Positions 3,790-53,905 of a stretch of DNA of 64,000 bases are shown here, one piece after another; the stretch's first letter is position 1; every line of letters starts with the position of its first letter. The notes below the pieces were generated by a model. That model was not told the origin of the DNA. It saw only the letters and a list, made by a program, of their open reading frames with translations, and ran no database searches. A program made the position numbers and the translations under genes. This stretch comes from Minisyncoccia bacterium. Lineage in GTDB: Bacteria; Patescibacteriota; Minisyncoccia; Phycocordibacterales; UBA1006. Location of the stretch: contig JBGATS010000004.1 of the NCBI GenBank assembly GCA_044229075.1, positions 878 through 64,877 on the forward strand. The letters are read 5' to 3'.

Positions 3790-3962
3790 TTTTAAAATTG
3801 TTTTGGTGATGAAAAACCTCGAAAATAATTCAAAGATTTTCGTCACCAAAACAACCTATTTGACAAAGAACTCTATGTTAGAGTCTATATAATCATATTA
3901 TTATGTATATGTCAACTGTTCGTATATTTTATTTATGTACGAATCATCTATTCGCCACTCTT

Positions 3963-3995
3963 GGATTAAAAAAACCAACCTTTACGGGGTTGGCT
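3963..3995. terminator. Terminator hairpin CCAACC-TTTACG-GGGTTGG with A-run
   Basis: Lies downstream of the stop of the 4015 minus-strand gene. Confidence 0.5.
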
Positions 3996-4014
3996 CAAAA
4001 TTCTATAGGCAAAA

Positions 4015-6639
4015 CTAATTTTTAATCAGTTTGCCTATATATATTTTATTTTCAGATTTTCCTTCGAGGAAGTAAATTCCTGATGGAAAATTTGAAAGAT
4101 CTATCTGATTTAATCCAGATGTGAGCTCTCGTGTTGAAATAAGGACTTCAATTGAATTAAATATTTTCAGTGTACAATTCTCTTGAATCTCAACTTGTGC
4201 CAACCCATTTGTTGGATTTGGGTAGACAAGAACTTCTTGTGGAATTGTTATTACCTCTGACATGGATAGTACGCATATATCAGAATATGTGTATGTATCG
4301 TCAAAATCAATTTGTTTTATTCGATAATAAATTTTACCACTAAGTGTGGCTGTATCTACAAAAAAATAGTCGCGAAATTGATTACTATTTCCATCACCAG
4401 AAGGCACAAAACCAATGCTATCAAACTGTATACCATCCAACGAGCGTTCGATTGTGAACCCAGTATTGTTTATCTCTGATGCGGTTGACCATGAAAGTTT
4501 TGCACTTCCAGAGTCAATCTTGCACCCAAAGGAAACTAGTTCTACTGGCAACAATATTGCTGGGCGTAATACAAACGTCAACGTAATATCAGTATCTGAG
4601 AAGATTTGAAACTTTCTCGATGAATCTGGATACTCTTTTATCATGACGTCATGTCCGTTTAGAACAGTATAACTAATTTGCAATCCTGGCTTTGGAAGAT
4701 ACGGCCCCGACCAACTTTTGGTTAACGTCAGACTATTGAATTCTAACGTAACTATATTTGCTGAAATCGAGTCAAATACGATATGTACGTGATTCGTATC
4801 TGTTAATACGTTGTACGCATACTGTGGTTGAAACTGGTTTGTTAGCAGTTGCAGCGCAGGTAATCTCCGTGACTCCACGAAGTTTCTAAATTCCCCGAAC
4901 GTGTGCTCTTGTCCTATTGAATCACGACCACCATTCGGGTAGCCGCCCCATGCTTCATAGTTGTATTTGTAGTACGGTATTACTTTTGGTCGAAAAGTAT
5001 CTACTATACCAGTTAAACGATCTGGAAGTAACCCAGTGTTCAGCATGTCTTCATAGACAAGTATCATTCGGTCAATCGCTTTTGGCGATTTGAGAATGAT
5101 TTTCTGAATCACTTCACGCATAAAACCAAAATAGTTGACAGATGACGGACCTAAAATTTTAGAATTCCAGTTACTCGCATTTATACCCTCCCATATTCCG
5201 ACATCATCAAAGTCCTCCATGAGGATGAACAACTTGTTTTGAGGTGTCAGCCCTAGTCCAATGTTATTATCAATTACATCATTCATATTGAAGTGATTAA
5301 TTAGACATAGATATCGTAACCAACTACCAAGATCTATCAGTGTGAGGAGTGTATCATAATGATCATAGAGTGTATCTCTTGCGAGATTCACCAACGTTTG
5401 AGTAATGGGTTTTATGCGTTGATTTGTCCCCTCTTCTACAGAAGCAATGATGCGTTTCTGACCGTCATGGTTCGTTACACTAACAGATATAACAGTATCT
5501 ATATACCCTGCAGGAAAAAACTGCAATGTGTCAAACCCAAGCGACCGGAAAAAATTCCCTACAATAGTGGTATCGTAGTCAAAATTAAATCGTACCCATG
5601 TACCAGCAAACGTGCTGTCATAGATAGTGGTATCTGACCCGACAATAAGTGTGTCGTAAAAAGTCTTAGATCCCACGTATATCGTGTCATAATACACGTT
5701 GAACGGAATCGGTCGAATTAAATCGACGGAATCCTTATCAACACCATATACCGATGCAACATACCGTTCGTCTGACTTGCGTTGAGGGAACGTGAACGAC
5801 CAATATGATCCGTTGATATACAATATAGAAACCGCATTATCAACACCACCGATCCTCCAATTAGGATAGTTAATGATGCGTTGTACAATTTCATTGATAC
5901 CAAACGCAGGTATTTGACCACCGTTGCCACTTCGCAACTTTATCTTATACTCATCTTGTAGGACACCTACTGTTGGACTAAAGACTGAGGTACGCATCTT
6001 TTTCGGACCAAAAACCGGAGATTTATTCGTTGCTTTTACGGTGAACCCTTTGTTTGCGATACAGGCACTTGAGCCTGCTGCAATATAGAATTCAACCGGC
6101 TGGTTAACCTCAAGAACTCCAGTTGGACTAAATACATGTAGCCATGCACGCACCCGTATGTCTTCTTCATAACGATTTTGCATATCTGCAAAATCAAGTG
6201 AGTCAACAGTGACGAAAAACATGTGCACATTATGCGGTATAACGCCAAGACCGATAACATAAACAGAGTCTTTTACTACTGTTTGAGTTACTGTATCGAC
6301 AAGAACTACTTGTACTACATTTGTCTTGTTTCTATCCCCACTGGGTAAGTTGGAGTCAAATGCATAACTGCACGGATTCCGTGCGTATATCACATTTTCC
6401 CAAGTATTGATTTCTGCTGGTCTTTTTTTTAACCACATACCGCCCGAGTATGGACGATATGAGTCACCAGTGAAACGATTCATTGAAACCAACACTTGCT
6501 GGTTTACACCAGCGACCCAATTCACTGTGAAATAAATTGAGTCAACATTATAGAAGCCACTTTTGTGGCTGGTTTGCGAAAAAGTTTGAATACTTAGCAA
6601 GAATGTCATTACCAAGAATACCAAGATTTTTGTTTTCAT
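4015..6639 (-). CDS. Large secreted protein with signal peptide and a C-terminal T9SS-type (Por secretion tail) sorting domain
   Basis: N-terminus MKTKILVFLVMTFLLSIQTFSQ. The C-terminal ~75 aa read VYPNPTNG...IDLSNFPSGIYFL...KLIKN, matching the TIGR04183-type CTD consensus. Confidence 0.6.
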   Translation of the reverse strand: MKTKILVFLVMTFLLSIQTFSQTSHKSGFYNVDSIYFTVNWVAGVNQQVLVSMNRFTGDSYRPYSGGMWLKKRPAEINTWENVIYARNPCSYAFDSNLPSGDRNKTNVVQVVLVDTVTQTVVKDSVYVIGLGVIPHNVHMFFVTVDSLDFADMQNRYEEDIRVRAWLHVFSPTGVLEVNQPVEFYIAAGSSACIANKGFTVKATNKSPVFGPKKMRTSVFSPTVGVLQDEYKIKLRSGNGGQIPAFGINEIVQRIINYPNWRIGGVDNAVSILYINGSYWSFTFPQRKSDERYVASVYGVDKDSVDLIRPIPFNVYYDTIYVGSKTFYDTLIVGSDTTIYDSTFAGTWVRFNFDYDTTIVGNFFRSLGFDTLQFFPAGYIDTVISVSVTNHDGQKRIIASVEEGTNQRIKPITQTLVNLARDTLYDHYDTLLTLIDLGSWLRYLCLINHFNMNDVIDNNIGLGLTPQNKLFILMEDFDDVGIWEGINASNWNSKILGPSSVNYFGFMREVIQKIILKSPKAIDRMILVYEDMLNTGLLPDRLTGIVDTFRPKVIPYYKYNYEAWGGYPNGGRDSIGQEHTFGEFRNFVESRRLPALQLLTNQFQPQYAYNVLTDTNHVHIVFDSISANIVTLEFNSLTLTKSWSGPYLPKPGLQISYTVLNGHDVMIKEYPDSSRKFQIFSDTDITLTFVLRPAILLPVELVSFGCKIDSGSAKLSWSTASEINNTGFTIERSLDGIQFDSIGFVPSGDGNSNQFRDYFFVDTATLSGKIYYRIKQIDFDDTYTYSDICVLSMSEVITIPQEVLVYPNPTNGLAQVEIQENCTLKIFNSIEVLISTRELTSGLNQIDLSNFPSGIYFLEGKSENKIYIGKLIKN

Positions 6640-6990
6640 ATTTATTATTGTTTTGATTATCAAAAAATTCAAAAGATATAAATTCTCTGGTAATCAAAAC
6701 AATGTTTGACAAGGAGCTATTTTTATAAAAAAAATTACCATACATCATAGAAAATGTAAAGCGCTCCATACTATAGGATCAGTCTCGTTCCTTGTGTTGA
6801 TATAATGTATTGTGTACAAAAAAAGCTGATCTGTGTCAGCTTTTCATATTATTTGAAATATATAGGCGTATAGTTGTTGTAATTTTTTCTATTGCCTTTT
6901 AAAATGAAAAAAGTTAGTATGATTTTATTTTTCATATGACGCATAATTTTATTTACTGTAGGATTTTCTAAGTCTATTTTGTTTTCTATA

Positions 6991-7689
6991 TTATTTCCAT
7001 TTGATATATATATTTCTAAAAGGAGAATAATCTACGCTCCATGCCAATAAATCATCTAAATTCTTCAATAATAATGAAGAACCCTCGGGTACATATTGGG
7101 TATTTTTATTTATTGACGCTATTGATTTTTCAACTGAAATCAAGGGGTCCAATAAAACATTTCCAAAATATTTATTCAAAGAATTATTATTACTTAAACT
7201 AGTGTACATTTTATTCAGTTTGTGAATATTGATTGACTTATCGGATTTTAATAAAAGATCTCCTTGAGTATTATTTTCAAAAAAATAATTATAAAAATCT
7301 ACTTGTACGAATCCAATACCCTTCACTGGGTAAAAGTTTTCGAGAGCCTCAGTCAATATTTCTTTGTGCACGTTCCCAGTAGTGATTAGGTATGGCAGTG
7401 CCATAATTCTTTTAAAACCATCATCTGATATTTGTTTATAACTGCTTTTATATAGCTTTATTAGCTGTGTTTGGGTTGAAGGAACACCGTCAATTTTAAA
7501 CTTATTGATTTCCTCTTCAAAATTGTATTCAACCCTTTTGTTGAGATTTTTTTCGAGGAATAAAAAGATGATAAAATCAACTATTCTTTTTTTATTTGTT
7601 TCCATTTTTAATTGCTTTAGTTTCCAAAAAATCTTCTGGAGTAAAGAGTCTTTGGAAACCAAAACAATATGTATCAATGAAACCCTCAC
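6991..7689 (-). CDS. Hypothetical protein, paralog of the disrupted gene at 7806-8397
   Basis: Shared motifs LPYLIxTxN and a C-terminal LLLKN with the neighbouring gene. AT-rich region. Upstream TTGACA-N17-TTAACT. Confidence 0.5.
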   Translation of the reverse strand: MRVSLIHIVLVSKDSLLQKIFWKLKQLKMETNKKRIVDFIIFLFLEKNLNKRVEYNFEEEINKFKIDGVPSTQTQLIKLYKSSYKQISDDGFKRIMALPYLITTGNVHKEILTEALENFYPVKGIGFVQVDFYNYFFENNTQGDLLLKSDKSINIHKLNKMYTSLSNNNSLNKYFGNVLLDPLISVEKSIASINKNTQYVPEGSSLLLKNLDDLLAWSVDYSPFRNIYIKWK

Positions 7690-7744
7690 CTTTATTGCAG
7701 TTAATCATAATTTGTATCTTATGTCAAGGAATGGTGGTATATAA

Positions 7745-8533: not shown

Positions 8534-9604
8534 ATGAATACAGAACATATCATCACCGAGGTAAAAAAACTCGAACACAGCCGTGTCGAAATAACGGTTA
8601 CGATTCCTACTGTGGAAATTGAATCGTTTCGCAATCAAGTAATCCAATCATTACAACAGTCGATCGAAATTGACGGATTCCGAAAGGGTCATGCCCCAGA
8701 ATCAAAAATCATCGAACGAGTTGGTGATATGGGAATCTTGGCAGAAATGGCAGATCAAGCATTGTCTGAAAGTTATCCGACCATTATCACAAAAACAGAA
8801 ATCATGCCGATCGGGCGACCAGAAATTGTTATTACCAAACTCATCCCTGGGAATGACGTTATGTATACCATCACCACTGATGTTATGCCGACAGTAGTCA
8901 TTAATGATGTTGAAAAAATTGCACAAGAAAAAAACAAGCACGAGCTAACCGTTGCTGTTACTGATGCTGATGTAGAAAAAGCAATTACTGAAATCAGAAA
9001 AATGCGCGCCCATGAAAAAATGCACGAGGATGGTATCGATCACCATGATCACAACCATCACAATATCGCAGACGCTGATCTCCCAGAACTCACCGATGAT
9101 TATGTGAAAGGATTAGGCAATTTTGAAACTGTTGCTGACTTTACACAACACGTGCGCACAAATCTGGAACAGGAACACACGGCAACCGCCCACGAAAAAC
9201 GTCGGTTGGAAATTATCGAGGCGATCATGGACAAAGGTACCTATGATATCCCGGCAAGTATTATCGATTTTGAATTGAATAAAATGATGGAACAATTCAG
9301 TTACGATCTAGCAATGAACGGAATGAGTATCGATGAATATGCACAACATATTGGAAAATCTATTGATGATATAAAACACGAGTGGAAAGATCAAGCAGAA
9401 AAACGTGTTCGCATGCAGCTCACACTCGAAAAAGTTGCACACGATTTTTCTATTACACCTGATCAAGAAAAAATAGATACAGAAGTTGAAAAAATCATGG
9501 ACATGTACCAGAACGAATCACTCCAAAAAGAAAATGTGGTTACCTATGTTACCCAAATCATGACTAATACTGCGGTGTTTGATTGGTTGGAAGCACAGAA
9601 ATAG
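8534..9604 (+). CDS. tig: Trigger factor, short form lacking the FKBP/PPIase domain
   Basis: N-domain motif GFRKGHAP and a C-terminal TF-like domain. About 356 aa with no PPIase signature. Start supported by TTGCAT-N17-TATGGT located 7 nt upstream. Confidence 0.75.
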   Translation: MNTEHIITEVKKLEHSRVEITVTIPTVEIESFRNQVIQSLQQSIEIDGFRKGHAPESKIIERVGDMGILAEMADQALSESYPTIITKTEIMPIGRPEIVITKLIPGNDVMYTITTDVMPTVVINDVEKIAQEKNKHELTVAVTDADVEKAITEIRKMRAHEKMHEDGIDHHDHNHHNIADADLPELTDDYVKGLGNFETVADFTQHVRTNLEQEHTATAHEKRRLEIIEAIMDKGTYDIPASIIDFELNKMMEQFSYDLAMNGMSIDEYAQHIGKSIDDIKHEWKDQAEKRVRMQLTLEKVAHDFSITPDQEKIDTEVEKIMDMYQNESLQKENVVTYVTQIMTNTAVFDWLEAQK

Positions 9605-17760: not shown

Positions 17761-17790
17761 AGTTTATAGTTTACTATAAACTATAAACTA
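17760..17790. promoter_or_regulatory. Perfect 14-bp inverted repeat TAGTTTATAGTTTA-cta-TAAACTATAAACTA that abuts and overlaps the start codon of the wHTH-PRTase gene
   Basis: Checked base by base. Probable autoregulatory operator. Confidence 0.6.
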
Positions 17791-17796
17791 ATGCAA

Positions 17797-17828
17797 GTAA
17801 TTAAAAACCACCCAGGAATTCCTGGGTG
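17797..17828. other. Perfect 32-bp palindrome AAAAACCACCCAGGAATTCCTGGGTGGTTTTT in a divergent intergenic region
   Basis: Hairpin with A/T flanks. No convergent gene to terminate. Confidence 0.5.
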
Positions 17829-18223
17829 GTTTTTCATTCCCTTTGCTTGTTTATGAGTCTGTAAAGTAGAAGTATCAGTTGTACCGTCTTTCATAGTAGA
17901 GAAGTCGGCGAGGAGAGAGGGTGTTAAAATGTTGTCATTCCTGCACAGGCAGGAATATTGCATTTCAACGACCGACTCCTTATATAATATTCGATACTAC
18001 CCCTATTTTACCTCACAAACAAGCAAAGAGAGCGGTGGAAATTGTGAAGCAATTTCCACCGCAATTGTATTTTCGCGGTTGTTCCAATCCGTCCACTATT
18101 GGACATGCCTATAGCAAGCCTATAATGAACGGAATAAGAAATTCAAATACTATTGATTTTTATAAAAAATATGCTATTCTAAATTTAGATAGCAAACTAT
18201 CTAAATTCTATAAACTCTATTAT

Positions 18224-21940: not shown

Positions 21941-22486
21941 ATGCCTCTCGAAACATTTAATATCTTGATCGGTGCTGGCACTCTAATTCTGGGAATTATT
22001 ACCATCGCATTAATACTCTTGTACGTTATTCTGGGAAGACAAAGTACATTCATCACTACCCTCCTTAATCACAGCGTGATTGTTGGGTTCGGTATTGGAC
22101 TTGCTGCAGTGGTTGGATCACTCACCTATTCAGAATTGTATCGCTTACCGCCATGTTTATTCTGTTGGTGGCAACGAATATTTCTCTATCCACAACTCAT
22201 CATGTTTGGAATTGCCTGGTATCGAAAAAATGTGACAGATCGTTCTGACGTTTTTTATTACACAACACCGATAGCGATCATTGGCACCCTTATTTCCCTG
22301 TATCACGTTATTCTCCAACAAGGAATTATTGGTGCTTCCGGAGCATGTCTGGAAAGTGGAGTTTCTTGTACCATTATCGATATCCAAGTTTTCGGATTCT
22401 TAACCATTCCGATGATGGCGCTCTTGTTGGGAATAATTTCTTCCCTCTTAGGACTACTCGTACTCACTCACAAAAAAAATGCGTAG
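21941..22486 (+). CDS. Disulfide bond formation protein, DsbB/BdbC-like
   Basis: Multi-TM protein with PPCLFCWWQRI (CxxC motif) and a second Cys pair. Translationally coupled to the upstream DsbA-like gene. Confidence 0.65.
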   Translation: MPLETFNILIGAGTLILGIITIALILLYVILGRQSTFITTLLNHSVIVGFGIGLAAVVGSLTYSELYRLPPCLFCWWQRIFLYPQLIMFGIAWYRKNVTDRSDVFYYTTPIAIIGTLISLYHVILQQGIIGASGACLESGVSCTIIDIQVFGFLTIPMMALLLGIISSLLGLLVLTHKKNA

Positions 22487-22574
22487 CGTTTTTTTTGTGA
22501 GTGAGTACTCTTTGTTCACGTATCTCATGTCGGCTTTACTAGATTTTTTACTCTTTCTGGGTATACTGCATGAT

Positions 22575-28888: not shown

Positions 28889-30175
28889 TTAAACTGCCAC
28901 CGCACCCTTTATTGTTGGATGACACTGATAATTTTCTAATGTAAAATCTTCGAATTTGAAATCATCAATGTTTTTCACATTTGGATTTAATTTCATAATT
29001 GGATATGGGAATGCTGTCCGTGTAAGCTGTTCAACAACTTGATCCATGTGATTACTATAAATGTGTAAATCACCGTAACCATGAATAAATTCTCCAACTT
29101 TACAATTAGTTACCTGTGCAACCATCATAAGAAGTAAAGCATATGAAGCAATATTAAATGGTACACCCAGAAAAATATCGCAACTACGTTGGTATAACTG
29201 TAAATCAAGTTGATATATCGGAGCTCCAACTGCATCCAAGTCATCATCATCCATGTTTTTTACATAGGATATATTTTTTTCATTCTTTTTTGCCCAATAC
29301 ACAAGTCTTTCATCAAGAGTCATAAGTCTTGAGTGAAACTGGAATAAGCAGTGACATGGCGGAAGTCCTGACTGAATCATTGCTGGTAAATCGCCAACAT
29401 TCCATGCAGATACAAGCATTCTACGAGAAATTATTCCTGTTTCATGTTGTTTGTTAATTTGTTCAACAACCTGACCTAATTGATCTATGGTATATTTTTC
29501 ATCATAGGGAATGAATTCACTATCGCTCGGCCAGTCACTGGGACGACTTGTAATTGTCCGAGTCGTTGACCATTTTCTCCATTGTTTACCGTACACAGGA
29601 CCCAAATCGCCCCATTCTTTTGCAAATGTAGGATAAGCCAATATCATCTCTTCAAACATTTTAATATCAATTTTTTTTGTGTGTTTATTATTGTAATTCT
29701 TTAATGGCCAATCAGACCAAATAGATACACCATTTTCTACTAGATATTTAATATTTGTACTTCCACTTACCAGCCAAATTAATTCATGAATTATACTTTT
29801 CAGGTGAACTTTTTTAGTGGTAATCAGCGGAAATCCATGATCAAGATTAAATCTAGATTGATATCCATGAATACCAATAGTATCAGTACCTGTTCGATCG
29901 AACTTTGGTTTGCCTTTCAATAAGGTGTGTAATAATGATTTTTCGTACTCAGAATAATCACTGTTCGAAATATGGTACGCAATGTCCATTACTTTTAATC
30001 TCTTAAGAGCATTATTCTGTAAACCTGTTAGTTCTGCTTGTTTTGCTCTTAGTGTTTTTGTTGGGATAATTTCTTTCATTTTTTTATTATTTAATTGTTT
30101 AAAAAATATTATTTTTACAACGAACATTTCTGTTCTGATTGATAGGTATTTTGCATTTTTTATAGAGAAAGTCAA
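28889..30175 (-). CDS. thyA: Thymidylate synthase (ThyA family) with an N-terminal extension and an internal insertion of about 35 aa
   Basis: [29 protein letters not shown], then an insert, then [23 protein letters not shown]. Start uncertain (alternative MKEIIP at 30079). Confidence 0.8.
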
Positions 30176-33345: not shown

Positions 33346-35871
33346 TTATTCCTTTGGAGTTGGACGATACGGAGTATAGTCAACTTCTTCATGGGTTACC
33401 ACATTTTTTGGGGCAACCGGAATATCTTCACGATTGGTATAATAATGATGATGTTCCTCTCGGCGAGTCATGTAACGAATCACCAAGATGACCAAGATGA
33501 GTAAGAGGATCAGGAAGAGCCATCCTGCCAATGTTCCTGGAAGATTCCCCAGACCAAAGATTGATGCGCCCAACACTTGATTCTGTGACGCGACAAAAGT
33601 GTCAGAGTCATATGCAATTGCATTCTCTTGTGCTTGTCGGTTTTCAGGGTTTTCGAATGCGATAATTGCACGTGCAGTTACCGGATCATTTTCTTTCAAG
33701 TTTCCTACCACCTTTGTTCGGATGGTAATATCATCTTTTTCAGAAATACGTAGTTCATCGATGTTTACGTATACCGCATTCGCATCACGGTCAATCTGAC
33801 CACGGTCAGTACTGGTGATTTGGAGTGCTTTCGGGAAAGTGATTTCGAGTACGAGATCCTTGATATCAACATTAGAGATATTTTCCCATGCAACGTCGTA
33901 TACCAATTCTTCGTTTCGCGCTACGGTGTCACGACTGTTATCAATCGTTAATCGTACATAGCGAGCTCCGCCTACTGCACCGGTTACTACAGTATTTGCC
34001 ACAGGGGCAGTAACTTCGCGAACAACGGTTGTTCGTACAATTCCTGTAGATGTAGTACTTTTTACGGTAGTAGTTCCCTTGCGTGCAGTACTGAATGAAT
34101 AGGTAGTTCCTTTCACAGTACCATTACAATTTTCTACCACTGCTCGGTAATAATATGTTACACCAGGAGTAAGACCCGTAAGTGCTTGCGCCATTGATCC
34201 CGATGTTGATCGGGTAACTGACCCAGTCGCTTGTCCTAATGATGATGCAGACGTTCCATATTCAAAATACGTTCGTCCAGAACATCCGTTCATGTTGTAA
34301 AATCCATCAATCACCGCAGTCGTGTATCCAATAGATACTGGTGTGAGTGTTTGTGCTGTTGGGTCACTACTGATAGGTGGAGGTGTACCCTTTTCAATAA
34401 TAAATCGAACCCATTCACCACATACTACGTCACCATTGTTCGCACATGCGCGGTATTCATAGGTACCATTTGCAAAACCTGTTTGCACATAGCTAAATCC
34501 ATGTGATGCATTACTGTATGATCCTGCGCTTGGTGTTGCTCGTTCTGAACCATTGATTGGTCGCCAGATGAAATAGGTAGTACTCACATATCCATCATTG
34601 TTGTAAAAATTTCCCTGCAGTGTCGCAGAACCGTTCGTATTATTCACTGATGGTGAACCGGTTGCAACAGAGATATTATTTTGTGGTGGTTGTGGATTAT
34701 TAGTGATAGTAAATTGCCGAACAACTCCTTCATTATCACCATTGTCATCACTCGCACACGCAGCATAATTATATGTTCCTGTAGACAGCCCGTTTAATAC
34801 TTTTGAGAAATTAGCAGAAGAGCTGTTTCCAGAATATGACGCAGAAACAATACGAACTTCTTCCTCATTAACAGGGTTAATAATAAAACAGGTAGTAACA
34901 GAACCTTCTGCGTTAGAAAATGATCCATTTAATGTAACAGATCCTTGCCCATTTACAGAAGCTCCTCCAGTAACCACATCAGGACCATTCCCTTGTGAAG
35001 AATTTCCAATTGTGAATGATTCCCACCCACTGGCAGATGCGCTACCATACACGTTCGCACCACATGCCTGGTAGTAATACGTTCCTGCAGACAGTCCAGA
35101 GAGGTTTAATGAGAAATTCCCTGTTGTTCCTGATGGCAGGTTTGCATCTCTTTTTACAACATCTCCGTTTGGATATTTTACATCGAAACATGCTTTTGTT
35201 GCAGAATAATTAGAACTGTAGGTACCGTTAATAGTAGCACTACTGGTCCCTACGTTTGATACTTGTTGGTTCTGAATCGTTGGTGCAGATCCGGTTGGAG
35301 TATTCGCAACTACCTTGAATACTGCTTTAACTACTCCTTGATTTTCCCATCCTGGATTTACGGTTCCAATATTGATTCCTCCTGCGTTAAAAATCTGAGT
35401 AGGGTTTGATAACGCAGTCCAACTTCGGTTACTTTGTGTTTGTACATACGCACCTACAAACGTAATAGTTGAATTTTGTTGGAGGGTAATTGATCGCTCT
35501 CCACTGTCTACAGCAGATCCATTAATATATACTTGTCCTATGGTTGAAAAAGTACTTGCAGATTTGTTCCCACGAAAATCAGTTACTCGTGCAGAAACGT
35601 TTGGAGCAGGTGCATCTCCATTATTATGGAAATATACTGCGAGGTTAATAGTATCCCCATCGCCAACAGTAATATTGGTGCCCGGCCAACATGCAGTATT
35701 TGCATCTTGTGGATTGTCTGTCGCATTGACCACCATATAGGTTGGACAATCGTTCGAAGCGGAATTCATTGAATATCCTGCAAACGCGGTTTGTGTAGAA
35801 ACACTAAAACCTACCATTGCAATCAATGCAATCATTCCGATTTTTGTTATTTTTGATAAAATATTTTTCAT
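33346..35871 (-). CDS. Large surface protein: signal peptide, multiple Fn3-like repeats (TYYYRA-type), a DUF11-like domain, and a C-terminal LPGTL-hydrophobic-RRE sorting-like anchor
   Basis: Repeats end LTPGVTYYYRAVVEN, LSAGTYYYQACGAN. DUF11-like: ELVYDVAWENISNVDIKDLVLEITFPKALQITS. C-terminus: GNLPGTLAGWLFLILLLILVILVIRYMTRREE. Confidence 0.6.
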   Translation of the reverse strand: MKNILSKITKIGMIALIAMVGFSVSTQTAFAGYSMNSASNDCPTYMVVNATDNPQDANTACWPGTNITVGDGDTINLAVYFHNNGDAPAPNVSARVTDFRGNKSASTFSTIGQVYINGSAVDSGERSITLQQNSTITFVGAYVQTQSNRSWTALSNPTQIFNAGGINIGTVNPGWENQGVVKAVFKVVANTPTGSAPTIQNQQVSNVGTSSATINGTYSSNYSATKACFDVKYPNGDVVKRDANLPSGTTGNFSLNLSGLSAGTYYYQACGANVYGSASASGWESFTIGNSSQGNGPDVVTGGASVNGQGSVTLNGSFSNAEGSVTTCFIINPVNEEEVRIVSASYSGNSSSANFSKVLNGLSTGTYNYAACASDDNGDNEGVVRQFTITNNPQPPQNNISVATGSPSVNNTNGSATLQGNFYNNDGYVSTTYFIWRPINGSERATPSAGSYSNASHGFSYVQTGFANGTYEYRACANNGDVVCGEWVRFIIEKGTPPPISSDPTAQTLTPVSIGYTTAVIDGFYNMNGCSGRTYFEYGTSASSLGQATGSVTRSTSGSMAQALTGLTPGVTYYYRAVVENCNGTVKGTTYSFSTARKGTTTVKSTTSTGIVRTTVVREVTAPVANTVVTGAVGGARYVRLTIDNSRDTVARNEELVYDVAWENISNVDIKDLVLEITFPKALQITSTDRGQIDRDANAVYVNIDELRISEKDDITIRTKVVGNLKENDPVTARAIIAFENPENRQAQENAIAYDSDTFVASQNQVLGASIFGLGNLPGTLAGWLFLILLLILVILVIRYMTRREEHHHYYTNREDIPVAPKNVVTHEEVDYTPYRPTPKE

Positions 35872-36000
35872 AATTGTTTATTGTGTGAATTAAATGATAA
35901 ACAAGGGTAGTATAGCATATTTGATATTTATTGTCAAGGTTTCACCAGAAATCATTTATACTGTCAAGAACCCATCAGAAAACTTCATGCATACATAAAA

Positions 36001-36027
36001 TTCACAATACAAGAGGGGCACCTGCGG
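36001..36027. repeat. GC-rich palindromic element, copy 2 (AAGAGGGGCaCC-TGC-GGCGCCCCTCTT)
   Basis: Downstream of the 36109 gene's stop, so it can act as a terminator. Confidence 0.7.
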
Positions 36028-36108
36028 CGCCCCTCTTGATATGTATATTCCCAAAAAACTTCAACAAAAAAAAGCCCGGAACGTATCCAGACGGCTTTTA
36101 TTCAATTT

Positions 36109-36948
36109 TTATTGTATGATAGTGTTTCCTATCAATGGTCCACTACTACCTACAGGTTGTTGTGACGTGTTGGTTAGGGGAATAATAACCCCCCCGTTAA
36201 ACCTCGGGTCGTTATCAGAAATAGTACTCCCTGTAAGAGGTCTCCCTGTTGAAGTACTAGTACTAGTGCTAGTGCTAGTGCTAGCAGGAACTGTCATTGT
36301 TCCTCCAGTAAATGGAGTACCACTTGTTCCTTGTTGTGCGGTAGTGGTGTTAATAATAATATTATCTTGATAAAGTCCAGCTTTGACATTTCTGTCATTT
36401 TGGACATCAAAATAAGTTTTTTCAACTAAACCAAAGGTTTCAAGTCCGGTTTTAACAATACCTAAACCCAGATCTGCTTTTCGTTTCCTGTTAGCAATCT
36501 CGAGCTCCAATTCTTTTAATTCAGCTTGTTTTGCTTGCCAAGCAATATCATTATTAAGCTTCAATTTTTCTACTTCTAATGTCTGCATTTGTAATTGGAT
36601 TTTCATTTTTTCCAGCTCAGGATCATACGTTTGAACAGAATTATAATTTCTGTTATCTACGTTTGATGGTTGTTGGTTTTGTTGCTGCTGACTGTTGTTA
36701 TTGTTATTAATAACAGTGCATGTTTTACAAACAAAATAATATGTATTATCTGCATAATATACACCGTATATGTTCCCAGCTTGTAGTTGGTTGTTATACG
36801 CTGCCAATGTTGCATAAAGCTTGTCAGATATTGGAGCAACAACATCAGTTTGGTAAACAGCATTTGCTGGTAATTGCTGCGCATTACCATTAACTGCACA
36901 GAAAGCGATAATTAATACCGCAACGATTTTTTTAATTGTATTTCTCAT
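36109..36948 (-). CDS. Secreted coiled-coil protein with an (ST)n repeat
   Basis: Signal peptide MRNTIKKIVAVLIIAFCAVNGNA. Coiled-coil ELEKMKIQLQMQTLEVEKLKL. ASTSTSTSTSTST is encoded by a hexanucleotide SSR. Confidence 0.55.
   Translation of the reverse strand: MRNTIKKIVAVLIIAFCAVNGNAQQLPANAVYQTDVVAPISDKLYATLAAYNNQLQAGNIYGVYYADNTYYFVCKTCTVINNNNNSQQQQNQQPSNVDNRNYNSVQTYDPELEKMKIQLQMQTLEVEKLKLNNDIAWQAKQAELKELELEIANRKRKADLGLGIVKTGLETFGLVEKTYFDVQNDRNVKAGLYQDNIIINTTTAQQGTSGTPFTGGTMTVPASTSTSTSTSTSTGRPLTGSTISDNDPRFNGGVIIPLTNTSQQPVGSSGPLIGNTIIQ
36253..36285. repeat. Hexanucleotide microsatellite (AGTACT)2(AGTGCT)3 inside a CDS
   Basis: Encodes the TSTSTS tract. Length changes would remain in frame. 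Confidence 0.8.
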
Positions 36949-37150
36949 TTTTTTTTAAATTTATTTGTTAAGTAATTCTAAAACCTTGATAGAACTATCC
37001 AGATCTTGGAATTACTTAATCAAATAAATTGTTATGAAGAAATACACTTTTTTTGTGAAAGAACTCTTTAACATAGGGTTTCCTATGTTCTTACGGGTAG
37101 TATAGCATATTGGGGTTTTTTTGTCAAGTAATTTTGAGATTAAATTTAGA
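36949..37150 (-). promoter_or_regulatory. Promoter plus structured 5' leader, module A: CTTGACA-N17-TGCTATACT, an 8-bp hairpin, and an 11-bp long-range stem TTAAGTAATTC/GAATTACTTAA near the start codon
   Basis: About 85% identical over roughly 190 bp to module B at 38210-38400. Confidence 0.6.
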
Positions 37151-37225
37151 TATGACAAAAAACAAAAAAATAACCCTATTCTGTGTGAATAGGGTGCCCG
37201 ATAACGTGGGTCGACGTTTTAAATT

Positions 37226-38209
37226 TTAAAAATCATAATCTGAGCTTTTTGGACCAGAGTTATTAATATTGCTTTGTTGTAATAATACAGCGCTCGTTGG
37301 ATTATTACTCAACACAACAGCATTTTTTACTTCTTGACCTTGGTTTCCATTGATAACAACTGCTTTATCAGAAACCCTACCATTGGTATTACATGGTATA
37401 ACCACTGCTTTTTTAGGACAATCAAACACTACTGCTTTTGGTGTAGTTTGAGCTGGCTTTTCCTCCGATGTTGGTAATTTTTTCAAATGACCTGCGATCC
37501 AACTGGTACTCGGTGTATTAAAGCAATACGCCGAACCAGAGAACATCGGCTCATAACCGAAATCAGACAAGTCAATCCACCAACCACCTTCGGCTTCACC
37601 AGATCCACCAAGGGTGTGCGCCTTTCTTGGTAAAGGGAAAATTTTATTGTTGGTGATATCTACACCATCAAAATAAATTTCCTCTCCTGTTGGAGTATTT
37701 GTGTAATATACACGACTACTTTCAAAAACTTTGACAACATCTTCTATTGTAGAAAACATTTCCAAATTGTAGGTTGCAGCCAATTTTCCACCAACTGCGC
37801 TGTTGAGCGCGTTGTAAAATGCAATCAACGATTCATTATGTCGTTGTTGCATTATTGGCAAGTACTTCATGTACTCACTGTACGATAACCCGTCATACAA
37901 ACGGCCATCGTTTTTTTGGAGTGGTGTACCATACAACATAAAAGCAATATAATCACTTTTATTTTTGTAATTAACCGCCTTGCTTGGTTCCTGGCAGATG
38001 CCATTTCCCCAAACCCTGAAGCGGCTGTAAACTAATTCTCCACTTGGTTTTTTCCAAATGTCGAAATAACCATTTTTTTCTTTGATATACATTGACGTAT
38101 CAAACGACAACGTTCCATGTCCTGTTGGTGTTGGACCTTGCTGTGCCTTTGTAGCAACAACAATACACATCACAATGGCGAGTGCTAAAAATTTAATTGT
38201 ATTCTTCAT
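37226..38209 (-). CDS. Secreted hypothetical protein with C-terminal KAVV repeats, paralogous signal peptide to the 36109 gene
   Basis: MKNTIKFLALAIVMCIVVATKAQQ. Four KAVV repeats. Confidence 0.55.
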   Translation of the reverse strand: MKNTIKFLALAIVMCIVVATKAQQGPTPTGHGTLSFDTSMYIKEKNGYFDIWKKPSGELVYSRFRVWGNGICQEPSKAVNYKNKSDYIAFMLYGTPLQKNDGRLYDGLSYSEYMKYLPIMQQRHNESLIAFYNALNSAVGGKLAATYNLEMFSTIEDVVKVFESSRVYYTNTPTGEEIYFDGVDITNNKIFPLPRKAHTLGGSGEAEGGWWIDLSDFGYEPMFSGSAYCFNTPSTSWIAGHLKKLPTSEEKPAQTTPKAVVFDCPKKAVVIPCNTNGRVSDKAVVINGNQGQEVKNAVVLSNNPTSAVLLQQSNINNSGPKSSDYDF

Positions 38210-38400
38210 TTTTTTTGATTTTATTTAATTAAGTAATTCAAAAACCTTGATAATCTGTATCCAGATCTTGGAATTACTTAATCAAATGTAAATTCAGAAT
38301 GAAAAATACAATTGTTGTGAAAGAACTATAACCATAGGATTTCTATGTTCTTATGGGTAGTATAGCATATTGGTATATATTTGTCAAGTTATCAACAGAT
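38210..38400 (-). promoter_or_regulatory. Promoter plus structured 5' leader, module B (duplicate of module A)
   Basis: CTTGACA-N17-TGCTATACT. Same hairpins as module A. Confidence 0.6.
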
Positions 38401-38458
38401 AACTAAATTAAATAGAGACTACCAGCAAATGCTTGATAGTCTCGTATTTATTTAGTTT

Positions 38459-39031
38459 TTAACGGCCTGGAACCGTATTTGGTGTTGATTTGTTTTCTTC
38501 GCCTCCAACACCAGATTTTTTCGAATACATCAATTTTTGCCCTGACCCAACTATTTGCCATAATTGTCCGTCACCTAGTTTTATATACCCAGGACGTGCC
38601 GGATCTTGTTTTAAAACAAATTCCGTAGTTGGGCTAATACCTGTTGCAGTGAATGGAACCTTTACAACATCGCCATTTTTCATAGTGAACTCCATTTGGT
38701 AAATAATCCATCCATTGCCAATTTTCTCTTGCGAGAATCGGCACAGCTCCATATTTTTGATTCTATGTTCTTTATACAGCACAGAATCAACAATGTCGCC
38801 GCGTTCATTGACAAACGAGGTGTCTTTTACGTTTTTGAACGTAACTTCACCTTGGATTGCGAATTGAACTTCCAAATCTGATTTTTTTTGAATTTCACGT
38901 TTTTCTAGCGTGAAAATTCCCCATGTGTCGTTTTTTGTTTCAACGATTGGCGTTGAATTGTAAACGATTGTTTTTTTACTGCAGCTCGACATTACTAATG
39001 CGATTACTGCTAAAATAATTAATTTTTTCAT
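38459..39031 (-). CDS. Lipoprotein (lipobox MSSC), hypothetical
   Basis: MKKLIILAVIALVMSSCSKK. Upstream TTGACA-N17-TATAAT. Confidence 0.55.
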   Translation of the reverse strand: MKKLIILAVIALVMSSCSKKTIVYNSTPIVETKNDTWGIFTLEKREIQKKSDLEVQFAIQGEVTFKNVKDTSFVNERGDIVDSVLYKEHRIKNMELCRFSQEKIGNGWIIYQMEFTMKNGDVVKVPFTATGISPTTEFVLKQDPARPGYIKLGDGQLWQIVGSGQKLMYSKKSGVGGEENKSTPNTVPGR

Positions 39032-39125
39032 TTATTCTTTTTTTTTTGATTATTCAATTTTCTACTATTATATACCATAACGTATATTTTGTCAAGTTTT
39101 TTGTTGTGGAGGGGGAATACTGGGG

Positions 39126-39188
39126 GAAATACAGAAAAAAAAAGGGGGGGCGCCTGCGGCGCCCCCCCTTTTTTTTTCTCTGTATTTC
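39126..39188. repeat. GC-rich palindromic element, copy 3 (GAAATACAG-A9-G7CGCC-TGC-GGCGC7-T9-CTGTATTTC)
   Basis: Perfect 11-bp GC stem with A9/T9 flanks. Downstream of the 39242 gene's stop. Confidence 0.75.
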
Positions 39189-41145: not shown

Positions 41146-42069
41146 ATGAATATTCAGCAAGCAAAACAGCGCTTCTTGGAATATGTTGAAATAGAAAAAG
41201 GGCGAGCGCTCAATACTGTACGAAACTACGAACACTATCTGGATGTGTTTATTCGTCACACCGCTATTCATGATACCAGTGATATCACGGACGAGATTGT
41301 CCGAGAATTTCGTCTGTGGCTCAATCGTCAACCAGTACACACAAAAATTCGTGGAGAACAAAAAACAATGTCAAAAAAAACTCAGAATTATTATTTGATC
41401 GCCCTTCGTGCATTCCTAAAATATTTAGCACGACAAGAGATAAAAAGTCTTCCTGCAGATCGTATTGAACTTGCAAAAGTTCCTATGCGAGAACTCGACT
41501 TGATTACCGCTGCCGAACTCAATCGACTGATGGACGCACCCACAGGTAGTGATGAACGTGCGCTCCGTGATCGTGCGATCTTGGAATTACTCTTTTCGAC
41601 AGGATTGCGTGTATCAGAATTATGCAACCTTACCACCGACATTGATTTTACTACTGATGAATTTTCTGTTCGTGGTAAAGGTGGAAAAATTCGCGTTGTC
41701 TTTATCTCTGATTCTGCACGTACCGCAGTACAACAATATATCCAAAAGAGAAAAGATATGTCCGACGCATTGTTCGTTGCTGTGTCGGATGAAACACGAG
41801 GAAGAAAACCAGCTGACCGTGATGCCAGTCTGACCCGCAGGGCAATCCTGCGCATTGTAAAACACTATGCAATCAAGGCTGGGATTTCAAAAAAGGTGAC
41901 CCCTCACGTGATCAGACACTGCTTTGCAACGGGGTTATTATCCAATGGTGCCGATATCCGCAGTGTGCAAGTGATGTTAGGTCATGCGAACATTGCAACC
42001 ACCCAGGTTTATACTCATGTCACCGATAAACAACTTCGTGAAGTTCACAAAAAATTTCATGGGCGATAA
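41146..42069 (+). CDS. xerC: Tyrosine recombinase XerC/XerD family
   Basis: Catalytic R...HxxR...Y: LRVSEL, HVIRHCFATGLL, QVYTHV. Leaderless promoter TGCTATACT is 6 nt before the ATG. Confidence 0.85.
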   Translation: MNIQQAKQRFLEYVEIEKGRALNTVRNYEHYLDVFIRHTAIHDTSDITDEIVREFRLWLNRQPVHTKIRGEQKTMSKKTQNYYLIALRAFLKYLARQEIKSLPADRIELAKVPMRELDLITAAELNRLMDAPTGSDERALRDRAILELLFSTGLRVSELCNLTTDIDFTTDEFSVRGKGGKIRVVFISDSARTAVQQYIQKRKDMSDALFVAVSDETRGRKPADRDASLTRRAILRIVKHYAIKAGISKKVTPHVIRHCFATGLLSNGADIRSVQVMLGHANIATTQVYTHVTDKQLREVHKKFHGR

Positions 42070-45733: not shown

Positions 45734-45743
45734 TAACCAAGCA

Positions 45744-45810
45744 ATACAAAACTCTATAAAAAAAAGGGGGGCGCCTGCGGCGCCCCCCTTTTTTTTATAG
45801 AGTTTTGTAT
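45744..45810. repeat. GC-rich palindromic element, copy 5 (67-bp perfect palindrome ATACAAAACTCTATA8G6CGCC-TGC-GGCGC6T8ATAGAGTTTTGTAT)
   Basis: 32-bp perfect arms. Terminator position after pyrG. Confidence 0.8.
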
Positions 45811-45857
45811 TCGAAACATTATACCCAAAAAAATTCCTATGCTATACTACATATGTT

Positions 45858-51974: not shown

Positions 51975-52274
51975 TTATTTTTCTTTCTTTTCGTTTGATT
52001 CATCTGGAATATCTTTTTTTATGTCTTTTTCTTCTGTCTCTATTTCTTTTTCAATACTTTCTTTGTCTTTTAATTTTTCAGAGTCAAGTGATGTAGTTTT
52101 TGGTATAACAATCCAACAAATAATGTAAAACAAAATTCCTGCAAAAAGGGTTAGGATCGTAAAAAGAACGTATCCCAAGCGAATAACTGTAGTATCAATA
52201 TCAAAATATTCTGCAAAACCAGCAAGAACACCTGCAACGACTTTATCAGAATTTGAACGATATAGTTTTTTCAT
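51975..52274 (-). CDS. PspC-domain membrane protein
   Basis: MKKLYRSNSDKVVAGVLAGFAEYFDIDTTVIRLGYVLFTILT. The track ORF extends spuriously over the tRNA. Confidence 0.7.
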   Translation of the reverse strand: MKKLYRSNSDKVVAGVLAGFAEYFDIDTTVIRLGYVLFTILTLFAGILFYIICWIVIPKTTSLDSEKLKDKESIEKEIETEEKDIKKDIPDESNEKKEK

Positions 52275-52474
52275 ATGAATGATCATTATTAATTTTGAAT
52301 AAATATAATATATAGACAAAAAACTTCTCGAGGTTTGAATATTATACTCATACGAATACGAATTATTTCTACCGAAATCTAGTAAACTTCTACAAAAACA
52401 AAAGAAAGTTTTTGTTGTGGTAATAAAAATTTTCTCGAAGAATAAATTAATACTTTTTGTTCCACATATTTTTG

Positions 52475-52546
52475 TGCACCTGCCAGGACTCGAACCCAGA
52501 ATAACAGTTCCGAAGACTGCTGTGATATCCATTTCACCACAGGTGC
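52475..52546 (-). tRNA. tRNA-Arg (anticodon UCG)
   Basis: Minus-strand cloverleaf: acceptor GCACCTG/CAGGTGC, anticodon stem GCAGT/ACTGT with loop CTTCGGA, T-loop TTCGAGT. 72 nt. Confidence 0.65.
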
Positions 52547-53279: not shown

Positions 53280-53640
53280 TATATGATATACACAAGTATA
53301 TAAACTATTATAAAAAGACATTTTTTTCAGAAAAAACTATATGTAGCAAGGGTTTTTCTGATTATATTAGTATGACAGATAATTATTATCGACACAACAC
53401 TCCTCTCAAAAAGGACAATATTGACTGTCTTTTATAAACATATCCCACTGGTTTATCCACAGTTTTATTGAAAAATAAGCTTCAAAAAACACATCACGAT
53501 GAAAAAAATCATTTTTTGCAAATTATTTTAGACAACAGATTTTTTGTGTTTTCTTTTAAAAGGACACGTCCAAACCTATTGTATTGTGGATAACTCATTA
53601 ATTACAAAAAACTACTCAAATTGAGTAGTTTTTTGTAAAA
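53280..53640. promoter_or_regulatory. AT-rich intergenic region with DnaA boxes: candidate oriC
   Basis: Perfect TTATCCACA at 53453-53461. Perfect inverse TGTGGATAA at 53585-53593. TTATCGACA at 53387-53395. ATATCCCAC at 53441-53449. Flanked on the left by the parS array. Confidence 0.45.
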
Positions 53641-53641
53641 A

Positions 53642-53905
53642 TTATTTGAGGCCGATCTTCTTGAGAAGAACTTCGTATGCATCAAAATTTTTCTTTTTAA
53701 TGTATCCGAGAAGCTTTCGTCGTTCTGCAACCATTGCAATGAGTCCCCGACGAGAGTGGATGTCTTTTTTGTGGAGTTGCAAATGAGCGGTTAATTGATT
53801 GATTTGCTCACTGAGTAATGCAACCTGAACTTCTGGAGAACCGGTATTTGTTTCCGCCCCACCAAAGTCTTTCACAATTTTTGTTTTTGCTTGTTTTGTT
53901 AACAT
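53642..53905 (-). CDS. rpsO: 30S ribosomal protein S15
   Basis: MLTKQAKTKIVKDFGGAETNTGSPEVQVALLSEQINQLTAHLQLHKKDIHSRRGL. Confidence 0.9.
   Translation of the reverse strand: MLTKQAKTKIVKDFGGAETNTGSPEVQVALLSEQINQLTAHLQLHKKDIHSRRGLIAMVAERRKLLGYIKKKNFDAYEVLLKKIGLK

Follow-up and report, generated by a model that had tools for sequence, protein, structure and literature searches.

Control hairpins in the 5′ untranslated regions (5′ UTRs) of mRNAs have been described in several forms. Hairpins processed by RNase III occur in the leaders of Escherichia coli adhE and phage lambda N, and a helix of more than two turns is a natural substrate of this enzyme. Stem-loops that stabilize mRNAs from the 5′ terminus are found in the E. 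coli ompA and Bacillus subtilis aprE and ermC leaders, and known stabilizer hairpins are short, at about 5-12 bp. Among RNA thermometers, the fourU element pairs UUUU with AGGA and the ROSE element carries a U(U/C)GCU motif. An intrinsic terminator consists of a G+C-rich hairpin followed by a U-tract, to which an attenuator adds an alternative antiterminator or a leader peptide, and the vsp, vpma and vsa loci of Mycoplasma possess conserved 5′ cassettes of variable surface lipoprotein genes. In Staphylococcus aureus, RNase III cleavage of a long 5′-UTR hairpin in the cspA mRNA stabilizes the transcript and activates translation by resolving an inhibitory structure, and inhibition of RNase J1 by 5′ hairpins has been discussed in the same work (PMC3386247). 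In Flavobacterium johnsoniae, which does without Shine-Dalgarno (SD) sites, structure between positions -20 and +20 lowers initiation (PMC6847099). Here we analyze a 64,000-nt stretch of contig JBGATS010000004.1 (assembly GCA_044229075.1, a Minisyncoccia bacterium; hereafter the window), whose host is an uncultured, deeply branching bacterial lineage. Two minus-strand modules, W1 and W2, lie upstream of the genes 36109-36948 (279 aa) and 37226-38209 (327 aa), and the leader of each contains a long hairpin (P2) that is a conserved, strand-specific RNA fold fixed between a strong promoter and the AUG. The leader element constitutes a lineage-restricted family new to Rfam 15, within the known kind of structured 5′-UTR control hairpins.

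P2 is a conserved, strand-specific RNA fold

W1 and W2 are 83.4% identical over 205 nt on the minus strand (37129 to 36931 versus 38389 to 38192; BLASTN, with a concordant MAFFT alignment), in agreement with the roughly 190 bp at about 85% identity given in a preliminary description of the locus. Each cassette consists of a consensus extended -10 promoter, a predicted leader and the first six codons, with the similarity continuing 18 nt into the coding sequence. Both modules open with CTTGACA-N17-TATACT; the form TTGACA-N16-18-TATACT occurs four times in the window against 0.07 expected, and the 16-mer ATATGCTATACTACCC is found there exactly three times, upstream of 33346-35871, 36109-36948 and 37226-38209, so that the -10 context previously said to be common to these three genes is borne out. 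With up to three mismatches allowed, ATATGCTATACTACCC has eight matches against 0.39 expected. The transcription start was placed 7 nt after the -10 hexamer, a spacing supported by rpsO (AUG at 53905) and the gene at 30841, in which the -10 lies 6-7 nt from the start codon; the W transcripts are predicted to begin with AAGAAC.

The core of P2 in W1 is built of an outer stem of 11 bp, a 1x1 mismatch, an inner stem of 7 bp that contains an AAGA:UUUU block, a further mismatch, 4 bp and a GUUC loop. An 11-bp long-range stem had been noted before; it is present, as the outer portion of a single uninterrupted, bipartite hairpin 28-32 bp long, with a folding energy of -27 kcal/mol in W1 and -24.5 kcal/mol in W2. 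Between W1 and W2, the core arms are identical at 26/26 and 23/24 positions, the 26-nt 5′ arm GATTAAGTAATTCCAAGATCTGGATA is the same in both and has no third occurrence in the window, and the divergence sits in the apical loop, the mismatch position, the promoter spacer and parts of the linker. The base of P2 lies 9 nt (W1) or 13 nt (W2) from the AUG, leaving the A-run between them free. Compared with dinucleotide shuffles, the whole-leader folds have z-scores of -7.4 (W1) and -3.75 (W2), with 0 of 200 shuffles as good.

Scanning the upstream regions of all window genes by descriptor and by fold identified three further P2-type hairpins (M3, M4 and M5) on the minus strand, each between its own promoter and AUG, giving five in total. 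A covariance model (R1) built from W1 and W2 alone had M3 and M4 as its best non-self matches in the window (M3 with 24.3 bits and E 0.02 on the opposite strand, and with 22.5 bits and E 0.057 on the sense strand, where M4 reached 21.5 bits at E 0.09). It also recovered the leaders L017, L012a and L012b in relatives, its remaining matches being terminators. The contigs of relatives, reached via homologues of the 327-aa protein and of an 841-aa protein encoded nearby, carry small secreted-protein genes in a syntenic cluster that precedes the gene of the 841-aa orthologue, and leaders with the same promoter and architecture and largely different sequence were found in L012 (a, b), L015 (a, b, c), L017, L021 (a, b), L023 and L024 (three). 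Even the more distant contig L019 retains the promoter, the motif AAGTTCTTTGAAA and a 14+10-bp bipartite hairpin. In each of the 18 copies, the element is found in sense orientation between promoter and AUG. The cluster proteins form orthologous groups at only 26-38% identity, and since the leader element precedes orthologous genes that have diverged this far, it must be old.

Pairing in P2 was evaluated for 12 hairpins. As MAFFT was unable to align them structurally, the AAGA:UUUU block served as a manual anchor, and an ungapped alignment was forced by adding artificial GC tags and masking the apical loops with N. In this alignment, 92.0% of the cells are paired versus 60.9% after shuffling (0 of 500 shuffles reach the observed value), changes on both sides occur in 21 of the 24 pairs, and sliding the partner by 1-3 columns leaves only 36-56% paired. 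Minimum-free-energy folding of each sequence by itself also yields its hairpin. L021b, which is 71-72% identical to W1/W2, swaps adjacent outer-stem pairs from A-U/G-C to G-C/A-U (UUAAGUAAUUC/GAAUUACUUAA in the W leaders, UUAGAUAAUUC/GAAUUAUCUAA in L021b), and a U·G pair of L012b is C-G in L017. The AAGA:UUUU block is nearly invariant (A-U in 11/12, A-U in 11/12, G·U in 8/12 and A-U in 10/12), and its G·U position is A-U in the other four hairpins and never G-C. Across ten hairpins, P2 measures 22-33 bp and -16.6 to -30 kcal/mol, providing a near-continuous double-stranded helix of at least about 20 bp within the 5′ UTR, with two to four G·U pairs per hairpin. Its base lies 4-20 nt upstream of the AUG across forms (mostly 4-13 nt), its 3′ arm is an A-rich tract at about -6 to -25, and the UUUU run pairs with AAGA 31-32 nt upstream of the AUG.

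The fold is a property of the sense strand, which is more stable than the antisense in 9/10 hairpins by a mean of about 8 kcal/mol and scores 96.7 and 93.1 bits against the covariance model, versus 65.6 and 56.7 bits for the antisense. This asymmetry bears on a DNA-level role, in which the palindrome would serve as an operator or as a recombination site of a XerD-like recombinase, generating phase or antigenic variation as in the Mycoplasma vsp and vpma loci. Such a role would be in keeping with a tyrosine recombinase gene 2.7 kb away and with 5′ cassettes, including signal peptides, that are homogenized between unrelated genes. However, it is very improbable: the G·U pairs make the palindrome imperfect in DNA and strand-specific, pairing is kept while the sequence differs completely between genomes, the recombinase is absent from the syntenic clusters of L012, L015, L018 and L024, and switching by inversion is impossible because all copies are direct and each has its own promoter. 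Phase-variable loci of the vsp/vpma type have inverted recombination sites in their conserved 5′ regions, a single active promoter and a linked site-specific recombinase; assignment to this class was rejected, the genes here being co-oriented, with a consensus promoter and a terminator for each, and the XerD-like gene being missing from those syntenic clusters.

The least probable explanation is that the modules are left over, without function, from a recent segmental duplication, or that a mobile palindromic repeat (resembling miniature inverted-repeat transposable elements, MITEs, or repetitive extragenic palindromes, REPs) came to lie upstream by chance. Two adjacent copies at 83% identity and identical triplicates in relatives would fit this origin, but the fold is conserved with other sequence before orthologous genes, position and sense orientation are fixed in 18/18 copies, loops and spacers are where divergence is concentrated, the flanking coding sequences show no relationship, and the exact patterns have no copies elsewhere in species genomes or metagenomes. 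A MITE/REP-type repeat (Correia, ERIC-like) was likewise rejected as a class, given the fixed orientation and position and the compensatory divergence. The preliminary description had named a simple duplication, with neither covariation nor additional copies, as the outcome that would speak against a structured RNA; both additional copies and strong covariation were found, and its proposal of a conserved structured RNA, not just a recent duplication, is upheld on these grounds. The Rfam search that it had recommended returned three tRNAs only at the gathering score in the window and none in the relatives L012, L015 and L017. An E-value scan of 35850-39150 gave chance-level matches only, and the best sub-threshold match to P2 was mir-203 (19.9 bits versus a gathering score of 65).

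An intrinsic terminator or attenuator was also considered and rejected: P2 has a G+C content of 19-31% and is followed on the sense strand by an A-rich tract. The attenuator suggested in the preliminary description is excluded because no U-tract follows the hairpin. Leader peptides were rejected too, as the small upstream open reading frames (ORFs) of W1 and W2 are in different frames and encode different peptides, and internal leaderless promoters (TAAATT/TAAAAT, 8-9 nt before the AUGs) were judged unlikely, having no -35 or extended -10 of the kind seen in the genuine promoters of this genome.

The anti-start helix P3 and the 5′ part of the leader

When the first codons are included in the fold, the linker upstream of P2 pairs with the AUG and codons 2-4 (W1) or 2-5 (W2), forming a second helix, P3, which accounts for the extension of the conserved module 18 nt into the coding sequence. 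Codons 2-4 are AGA AAU ACA in W1, AAG AAU ACA in W2 and AAA AAA ACA in L021b, opposite the anti-start strands UGUAUUUCU, UGUAUUUUU and UGUUUUUUU, respectively, and among these three alignable homologues P3 covaries with two double changes and one wobble. In 3/4 lineages, cognate linker:start duplexes surpass the non-cognate ones in strength, and P3 exceeds shuffled linkers at p <= 0.01 for W1, W2 and L012a and at about 0.03 for L015a and L015c. The presence of P3 in long-form leaders renders translational control plausible.

Because P3 masks the AUG in the long forms, and because U-runs are paired with purines via G·U in a fourU-like manner, an RNA thermometer might be envisaged, in which AU-rich, wobble-containing start-site pairing would melt at a higher (perhaps host) temperature and switch the surface proteins on. 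However, this is highly unlikely: there is no SD-like sequence to mask in either leader or at any of 45 window starts, P2 at -17 to -30 kcal/mol is too stable for physiological melting, short-form leaders are devoid of P3, and the ROSE motif is absent from the W1 leader, the only one inspected by eye. The thermosensor of the preliminary description is accordingly unlikely in its classical form, given the stability of P2 and no SD to mask.

Near the predicted 5′ end, a hairpin of 8 bp had been ascribed to both leaders; it is intact in W1, and in W2 it is reduced to 5 bp, a bulge and 2 bp. With the predicted start, AAGAAC (+1 to +6; 37092-37087 in W1) can pair with GUUCUU in an alternative outer helix that would include the 5′ end itself, or the hairpin begins at +4. 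Equivalent 5′ hairpins of other sequence occur in L015a/b/c, L021a/b, L023 and L024, and short-form leaders have no stable 5′ hairpin. The adjoining pyrimidine motif GTTCYTT is found in 16 of the 18 leaders examined, including that of L019, the exceptions being M5 (GCTCCTT) and M4 (GTTTCAT), and in W1 and W2 an AU-rich linker separates it from P2.

The leader might plausibly be recognized by a protein or by RNase III. One explanation of this type takes the leader as a binding platform for a dedicated RNA-binding regulator of a post-transcriptional regulon, with its site in the AAGA:UUUU block, where G·U lies beside a mismatch, and/or in GUUCYUU. Four consecutive near-invariant pairs inside otherwise freely varying stems, the retention of GUUCYUU even in L019, and a signal peptide or hydrophobic N-terminal segment in four of the five window genes with P2 would be expected of such a regulon. 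Nevertheless, we regard it as unlikely, as no candidate regulator is conserved beside the clusters, common descent may account for the conserved block, and the gene set is small.

Cassette evolution, genes and genomic context

Orthologous leaders differ greatly between genomes, and within a genome the leaders of unrelated neighboring genes are homogenized, over different lengths, in the window, L015 and L024 (Table 1). Concerted evolution, by gene conversion or cassette replacement, on top of an older, widespread leader architecture offers the best explanation for the near-identity of W1 and W2, and selection would hold the functional segments of the cassettes constant. Several short-read assemblies and contigs break at or near promoter-leader cassettes.

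Table 1. Positions of leader features, related hairpins and homogenized cassettes (window coordinates unless a relative's contig is named)
Feature	Position	Strand	Details
W1 promoter	37099..37127	-	-35 TTGACA 37127-37122; extended -10 TGC-TATACT, hexamer 37104-37099
W1 predicted 5′ UTR	36949..37092	-	~144 nt; predicted start A37092, from 7-nt spacing after -10
W1 5′-proximal hairpin	37070..37089	-	AACAUAGG-AAAC-CCUAUGUU
W1 pyrimidine motif	37058..37064	-	GUUCUUU; conserved
W1 anti-start (P3 5′ strand)	37034..37046	-	UGUAUUUCU-U-CAU
W1 long hairpin P2	36958..37030	-	32 bp, 2 G·U; core 37019-36968
W1 A-rich spacer	36957-36949	-	unpaired; directly before start codon
W1 start codon and codons 2-4 (P3 3′ strand)	36937..36948	-	AUGAGAAAUACA
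W2 promoter	38359..38387	-	-35 TTGACA 38387-38382; -10 TATACT 38364-38359
W2 predicted 5′ UTR	38210..38352	-	~143 nt
W2 5′ hairpin region	38349-38330	-	
W2 pyrimidine motif	38326-38320	-	GUUCUUU
W2 anti-start	38313-38299	-	AAUUGUAUUUUUCAU
W2 long hairpin P2	38223..38287	-	28 bp, 3 G·U; core 38281-38229
W2 start codon and codons 2-5 (P3 3′ strand)	38195..38209	-	AUGAAGAAUACAAUU
M3 P2-type hairpin	3795..3857	-	26 bp, 4 G·U; 5 nt before AUG 3789; promoter TTGACA 3915-3910; GTTCTTT 3871-3865
M5 P2-type hairpin	6647..6703	-	24 bp, 3 G·U; 7 nt before AUG 6639; promoter TTTACA 6760-6755/TAATTT 6737-6732
M4 P2-type hairpin	7611..7668	-	25 bp, 4 G·U; 5 nt before AUG 7605; promoter TTGACA 7727-7722/TTAACT 7704-7699
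841-aa gene promoter and short leader	35874..35937	-	same extended -10 context as W1/W2; leader differs
841-aa gene leader hairpin	35904-35874	-	8 bp, UUGUUUAU..AUAAACAA; 2 nt before AUG 35871
Window cassettes W1/W2	-35 to +18	-	83%
L015 cassettes L015a/c	6490-6750 vs 8860-9120		~95%; through signal-peptide cleavage site
L024 cassettes (three)	2555-2757, 3453-3655, 4662-4864		100%; 203 nt

Read from the sequence, the two W genes are separate units, each with a terminator-like hairpin and T-run, promoter, leader, coding sequence and terminator. They had been described as encoding paralogous members of a surface-protein family, which the comparison does not support, since only the signal peptides match (12/27, E 0.024; BLASTP) and the 279-aa and 327-aa proteins belong to two separate orthologous groups (W_279, L015_253, L012_224 and L014_231; W_327, L012_286 and L015_295). 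An exhaustive search with the 327-aa protein recovered 10 representative relatives among 1.84 billion clusters; a word-indexed search returned the query itself only, and one using a three-member alignment as the query added one new protein, P0025. No meaningful match to PDB sequences was obtained for three of the proteins, and structure prediction of the 327-aa protein was unsuccessful (predicted local distance difference test score, pLDDT, 46.5). Short repeats (P)(N/K)(A/V)VV, often followed by C or N (KAVV, PNVV, PKVV), occur in the C-terminal thirds of leader-driven proteins, as at window 37226-37450 and at the C-termini of L012_286, L012_295 and L015_295. They may represent a cell-surface anchoring or sorting repeat, although Pfam and PDB gave no match to them.

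The M3 gene encodes a 537-aa protein whose N-terminus is hydrophobic, the M5 gene an 874-aa protein carrying both a signal peptide and a type IX secretion system (T9SS) C-terminal sorting domain, and the M4 gene a 204-aa protein. These genes form a second cluster on the minus strand (2176-7727) of three consecutive monocistronic genes, each with its own promoter and short-form P2 leader, whose outer stems start with (A/G)UUGUUUUG and finish with CAAAACAAU or AAAGCAAU. The ORF lists begin these three genes too early (at TTG/GTG); the likely starts are the ATG codons preceded by the hairpins.

The 841-aa protein is CLIPPER/DUF11-like, and the short leader of its gene consists almost entirely of a hairpin with the conserved loop ..AATTCAC... 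This hairpin is kept in all orthologues examined (L011, L012, L013, L014, L015, L017 and L024), with one compensatory change from U-A to A-U in L015. In relatives, TsaE and DsbB flank the 841-aa orthologue, but here they lie at 21.9-23.0 kb, indicating a rearrangement. The XerD-like tyrosine recombinase gene occupies 41146-42069 (+), 2.7 kb from the W cluster, and a 33.6-kb JGI contig of a close relative (CTP synthase at least 90% identical) ends inside the corresponding gene, so the left segment at 33-41 kb may vary between strains.

The window is chromosomal, encoding RNase Y, PcrA, ArgRS, CTP synthase, ClpP, trigger factor and YifB, and the singleton status of ClpP and RNase Y at 90% identity suggests a poorly sampled lineage. 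Its promoters are of the sigma-70 type (TTGACA-N17-TGnTAnnnT, with an extended -10), unlike the TTTG/TAnnTTTG type of Bacteroidia, despite the T9SS sorting-domain protein. The lack of an SD, noted for the two leaders in the preliminary description, extends to the window: none of 45 window starts has an SD-like 4-mer at -20 to -5 (background 6.7%), and the regions upstream of window genes are A-rich and G-poor. The statement that most other genes are leaderless holds only in part. Among 19 genes with a strong promoter match, the -10 lies within 12 nt of the start in seven, at 13-70 nt in seven and farther away in five. With the -10 only 6-10 nt from the ATG in several genes, rpsO (AUG at 53905) and the genes at 30841, 54303, 8534 and 21556 are probably leaderless.

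Very long palindromes lie between convergent or adjacent genes at 45743-45811, 39126-39188, 17783-17854, 22472-22496 and 53596-53643. Their arms measure 19-36 nt (33 nt with 100% complementarity at 45743-45811) and consist of an A-tract, a G+C-rich core and a T-tract; they look like bidirectional intrinsic terminators with extended A/U pairing and were the main false positives of hairpin searches in the window. L015 contains intergenic REP-like palindromic clusters at 4760-4990 and 7470-7600 (TTGTCATTCTGG..CCAGAATC and GTCATTCCTGCG..GCAGGAATC), of which none was seen in the window. A ThyA-type thymidylate synthase ORF (28889-30175, minus strand, 428 aa) matches its family in separate stretches (~77-282 and 322-428), implying an internal insertion together with either an extended N-terminus or a wrongly assigned TTG start. 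A tRNA-Arg(TCG) gene at 52474-52546 (minus strand) overlaps the annotated 5′ end of a PspC-domain ORF (51975-52532), the true start of which is probably further downstream.

Proposed control of translation and comparison with known systems

With moderate confidence, we interpret the leader as a lineage-specific, cis-acting 5′-UTR element that exerts processing- or unwinding-dependent control over translation and mRNA stability in a genome without SD sites. Every gene with such a leader constitutes a separate transcription unit under a near-consensus promoter of the sigma-70 type that has an extended -10. The long-form transcript is predicted to present, in order, the 5′ hairpin, GUUCYUU, the anti-start linker (...UUUCAU) pairing with the AUG and first codons as P3, and P2, whose A-rich 3′ arm would otherwise be available for ribosome landing. 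Folded in this way, the leader would keep the initiation region paired and thereby control translation and mRNA stability, and the long, near-perfect double-stranded helix would provide a handle for relief. Most likely, RNase III would cut P2, or a helicase or double-stranded RNA-binding protein would open it. A cut would free the start region from both the anti-start strand and the U-rich 5′ arm and leave a short, translatable, A-rich leader, and the 5′-terminal hairpin would protect the primary transcript. This interpretation is favored because the initiation region would be held in structure, pairing in this region is known to matter in F. johnsoniae, the helix is of a size suited to RNase III, and cspA offers a precedent.

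Several observations weigh against this interpretation. The transcription start, from which the leader is delimited, follows from promoter geometry only. The near-consensus promoters suggest high expression, which is at odds with an inhibitory leader, and P2 could be a mere stabilizer or insulator. Manual anchoring of the P2 alignment on the structure biases its pair counts toward structure. In the short-form leaders (~81-91 nt: M3, M4, M5, L012b and L017), anti-start pairing is not significant; start-codon masking is therefore not universal, and only P2 beside the AUG is. The predicted accessibility of the W1 and W2 start regions is unexceptional relative to other window genes, although this control is crude, and the comparison is uninformative, since untranscribed DNA upstream forms part of most controls. 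No RNase III gene was present among the ~55 window ORFs scanned. Finally, exact-pattern scans of 185,579 species genomes and the JGI metagenomes produced no further copies and chance matches only: the pattern TTAAGTAATTC-N20-45-GAATTACTTAA hit four unrelated chance palindromes in genome contigs, a set of GTDB representatives to which the source genome does not belong, and an exact 19-mer had five chance matches inside unrelated sequence in metagenome contigs.

The main rival, which we consider rather unlikely, is a constitutive mRNA stabilizer or insulator, in which P2 and the 5′ hairpin would guard a highly expressed mRNA from 5′-end-dependent or 5′-to-3′ exonucleolytic decay and shield the A-rich start, with no switch and no processing. 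The near-consensus promoters, a 5′-proximal hairpin predicted to include the first nucleotides, the conserved hairpin that fills the entire short leader of the neighboring 841-aa gene, the RNase Y encoded in the window and the unpaired AUG of short-form leaders are all consistent with such a role. However, a 22-33-bp helix with a conserved G·U block exceeds what protection needs and would attract RNase III, and pure stabilization gives no role to the covarying P3 of the long forms.

A further possibility, which we hold to be quite unlikely, is that P2 and its A-tract are a lineage-wide stand-in for the SD interaction on mRNAs with long leaders. In a genome with no SD sites and with several genes that look leaderless, a stable hairpin at a fixed distance of a few nucleotides upstream of the AUG would mark the start site, mimicking a 5′ end and thereby stopping and positioning the ribosome; alternatively, an RNase cut at or in the hairpin would yield a near-leaderless, translatable mRNA. 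The anti-start helix and the homogenized promoter-leader-signal-peptide cassettes would then make up a dedicated expression system for secreted proteins.

The leaders represent a previously undescribed, covariation-supported family of cis-acting RNA that is absent from Rfam 15. What selects and tunes start sites where SD pairing is missing remains an open question, and multi-copy hairpins located 4-13 nt from the AUG, in some cases accompanied by a covarying anti-start helix, offer test constructs for it in a host that unites sigma-70-type consensus promoters, the absence of SD sites and a T9SS C-terminal sorting-domain protein. Cassette homogenization between unrelated neighbors, at 83%, ~95% and 100% in three genomes, is a repeated phenomenon in this lineage. 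The practical impact will be modest until a function is shown.

Among known systems, the families of Rfam 15 show generic hairpin resemblance only. Like the fourU, ROSE and Listeria prfA leader thermometers, the long forms mask the start region by AU/GU-rich pairing and pair U-runs with purines, but the present leaders lack an SD, their main helix is too stable to melt and the short forms have no masking helix. The Mycoplasma vsp/vpma/vsa loci likewise homogenize the promoter, 5′ UTR and signal-peptide region among neighbors whose mature parts are unrelated or divergent, and have a tyrosine recombinase nearby; in the present locus, however, each gene has its own promoter, the genes are co-oriented, the recombinase is not conserved with the cluster and the conserved feature is an RNA fold. 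With 5′-terminal stabilizers, the leaders share a predicted 5′ end that may be paired, hairpins near the start codon and an association with highly expressed envelope or secreted-protein genes, whereas P2 is internal, two to four times longer than known stabilizers and accompanied by an anti-start helix. RNase III-processed 5′-UTR hairpins such as that of cspA (PMC3386247) resemble the element in three respects: a strongly expressed gene has a long, irregular hairpin of more than two turns in its 5′ UTR, the initiation region is structured as long as the leader is unprocessed, and a cut would leave a shorter, translatable leader. The present element differs in having no SD, so that what is masked is an A-rich upstream tract, together with the AUG in the long forms; its cleavage is predicted by analogy, and it forms a multi-copy family, with five members in 64 kb and others in relatives, marked by the conserved AAGA:UUUU wobble block.

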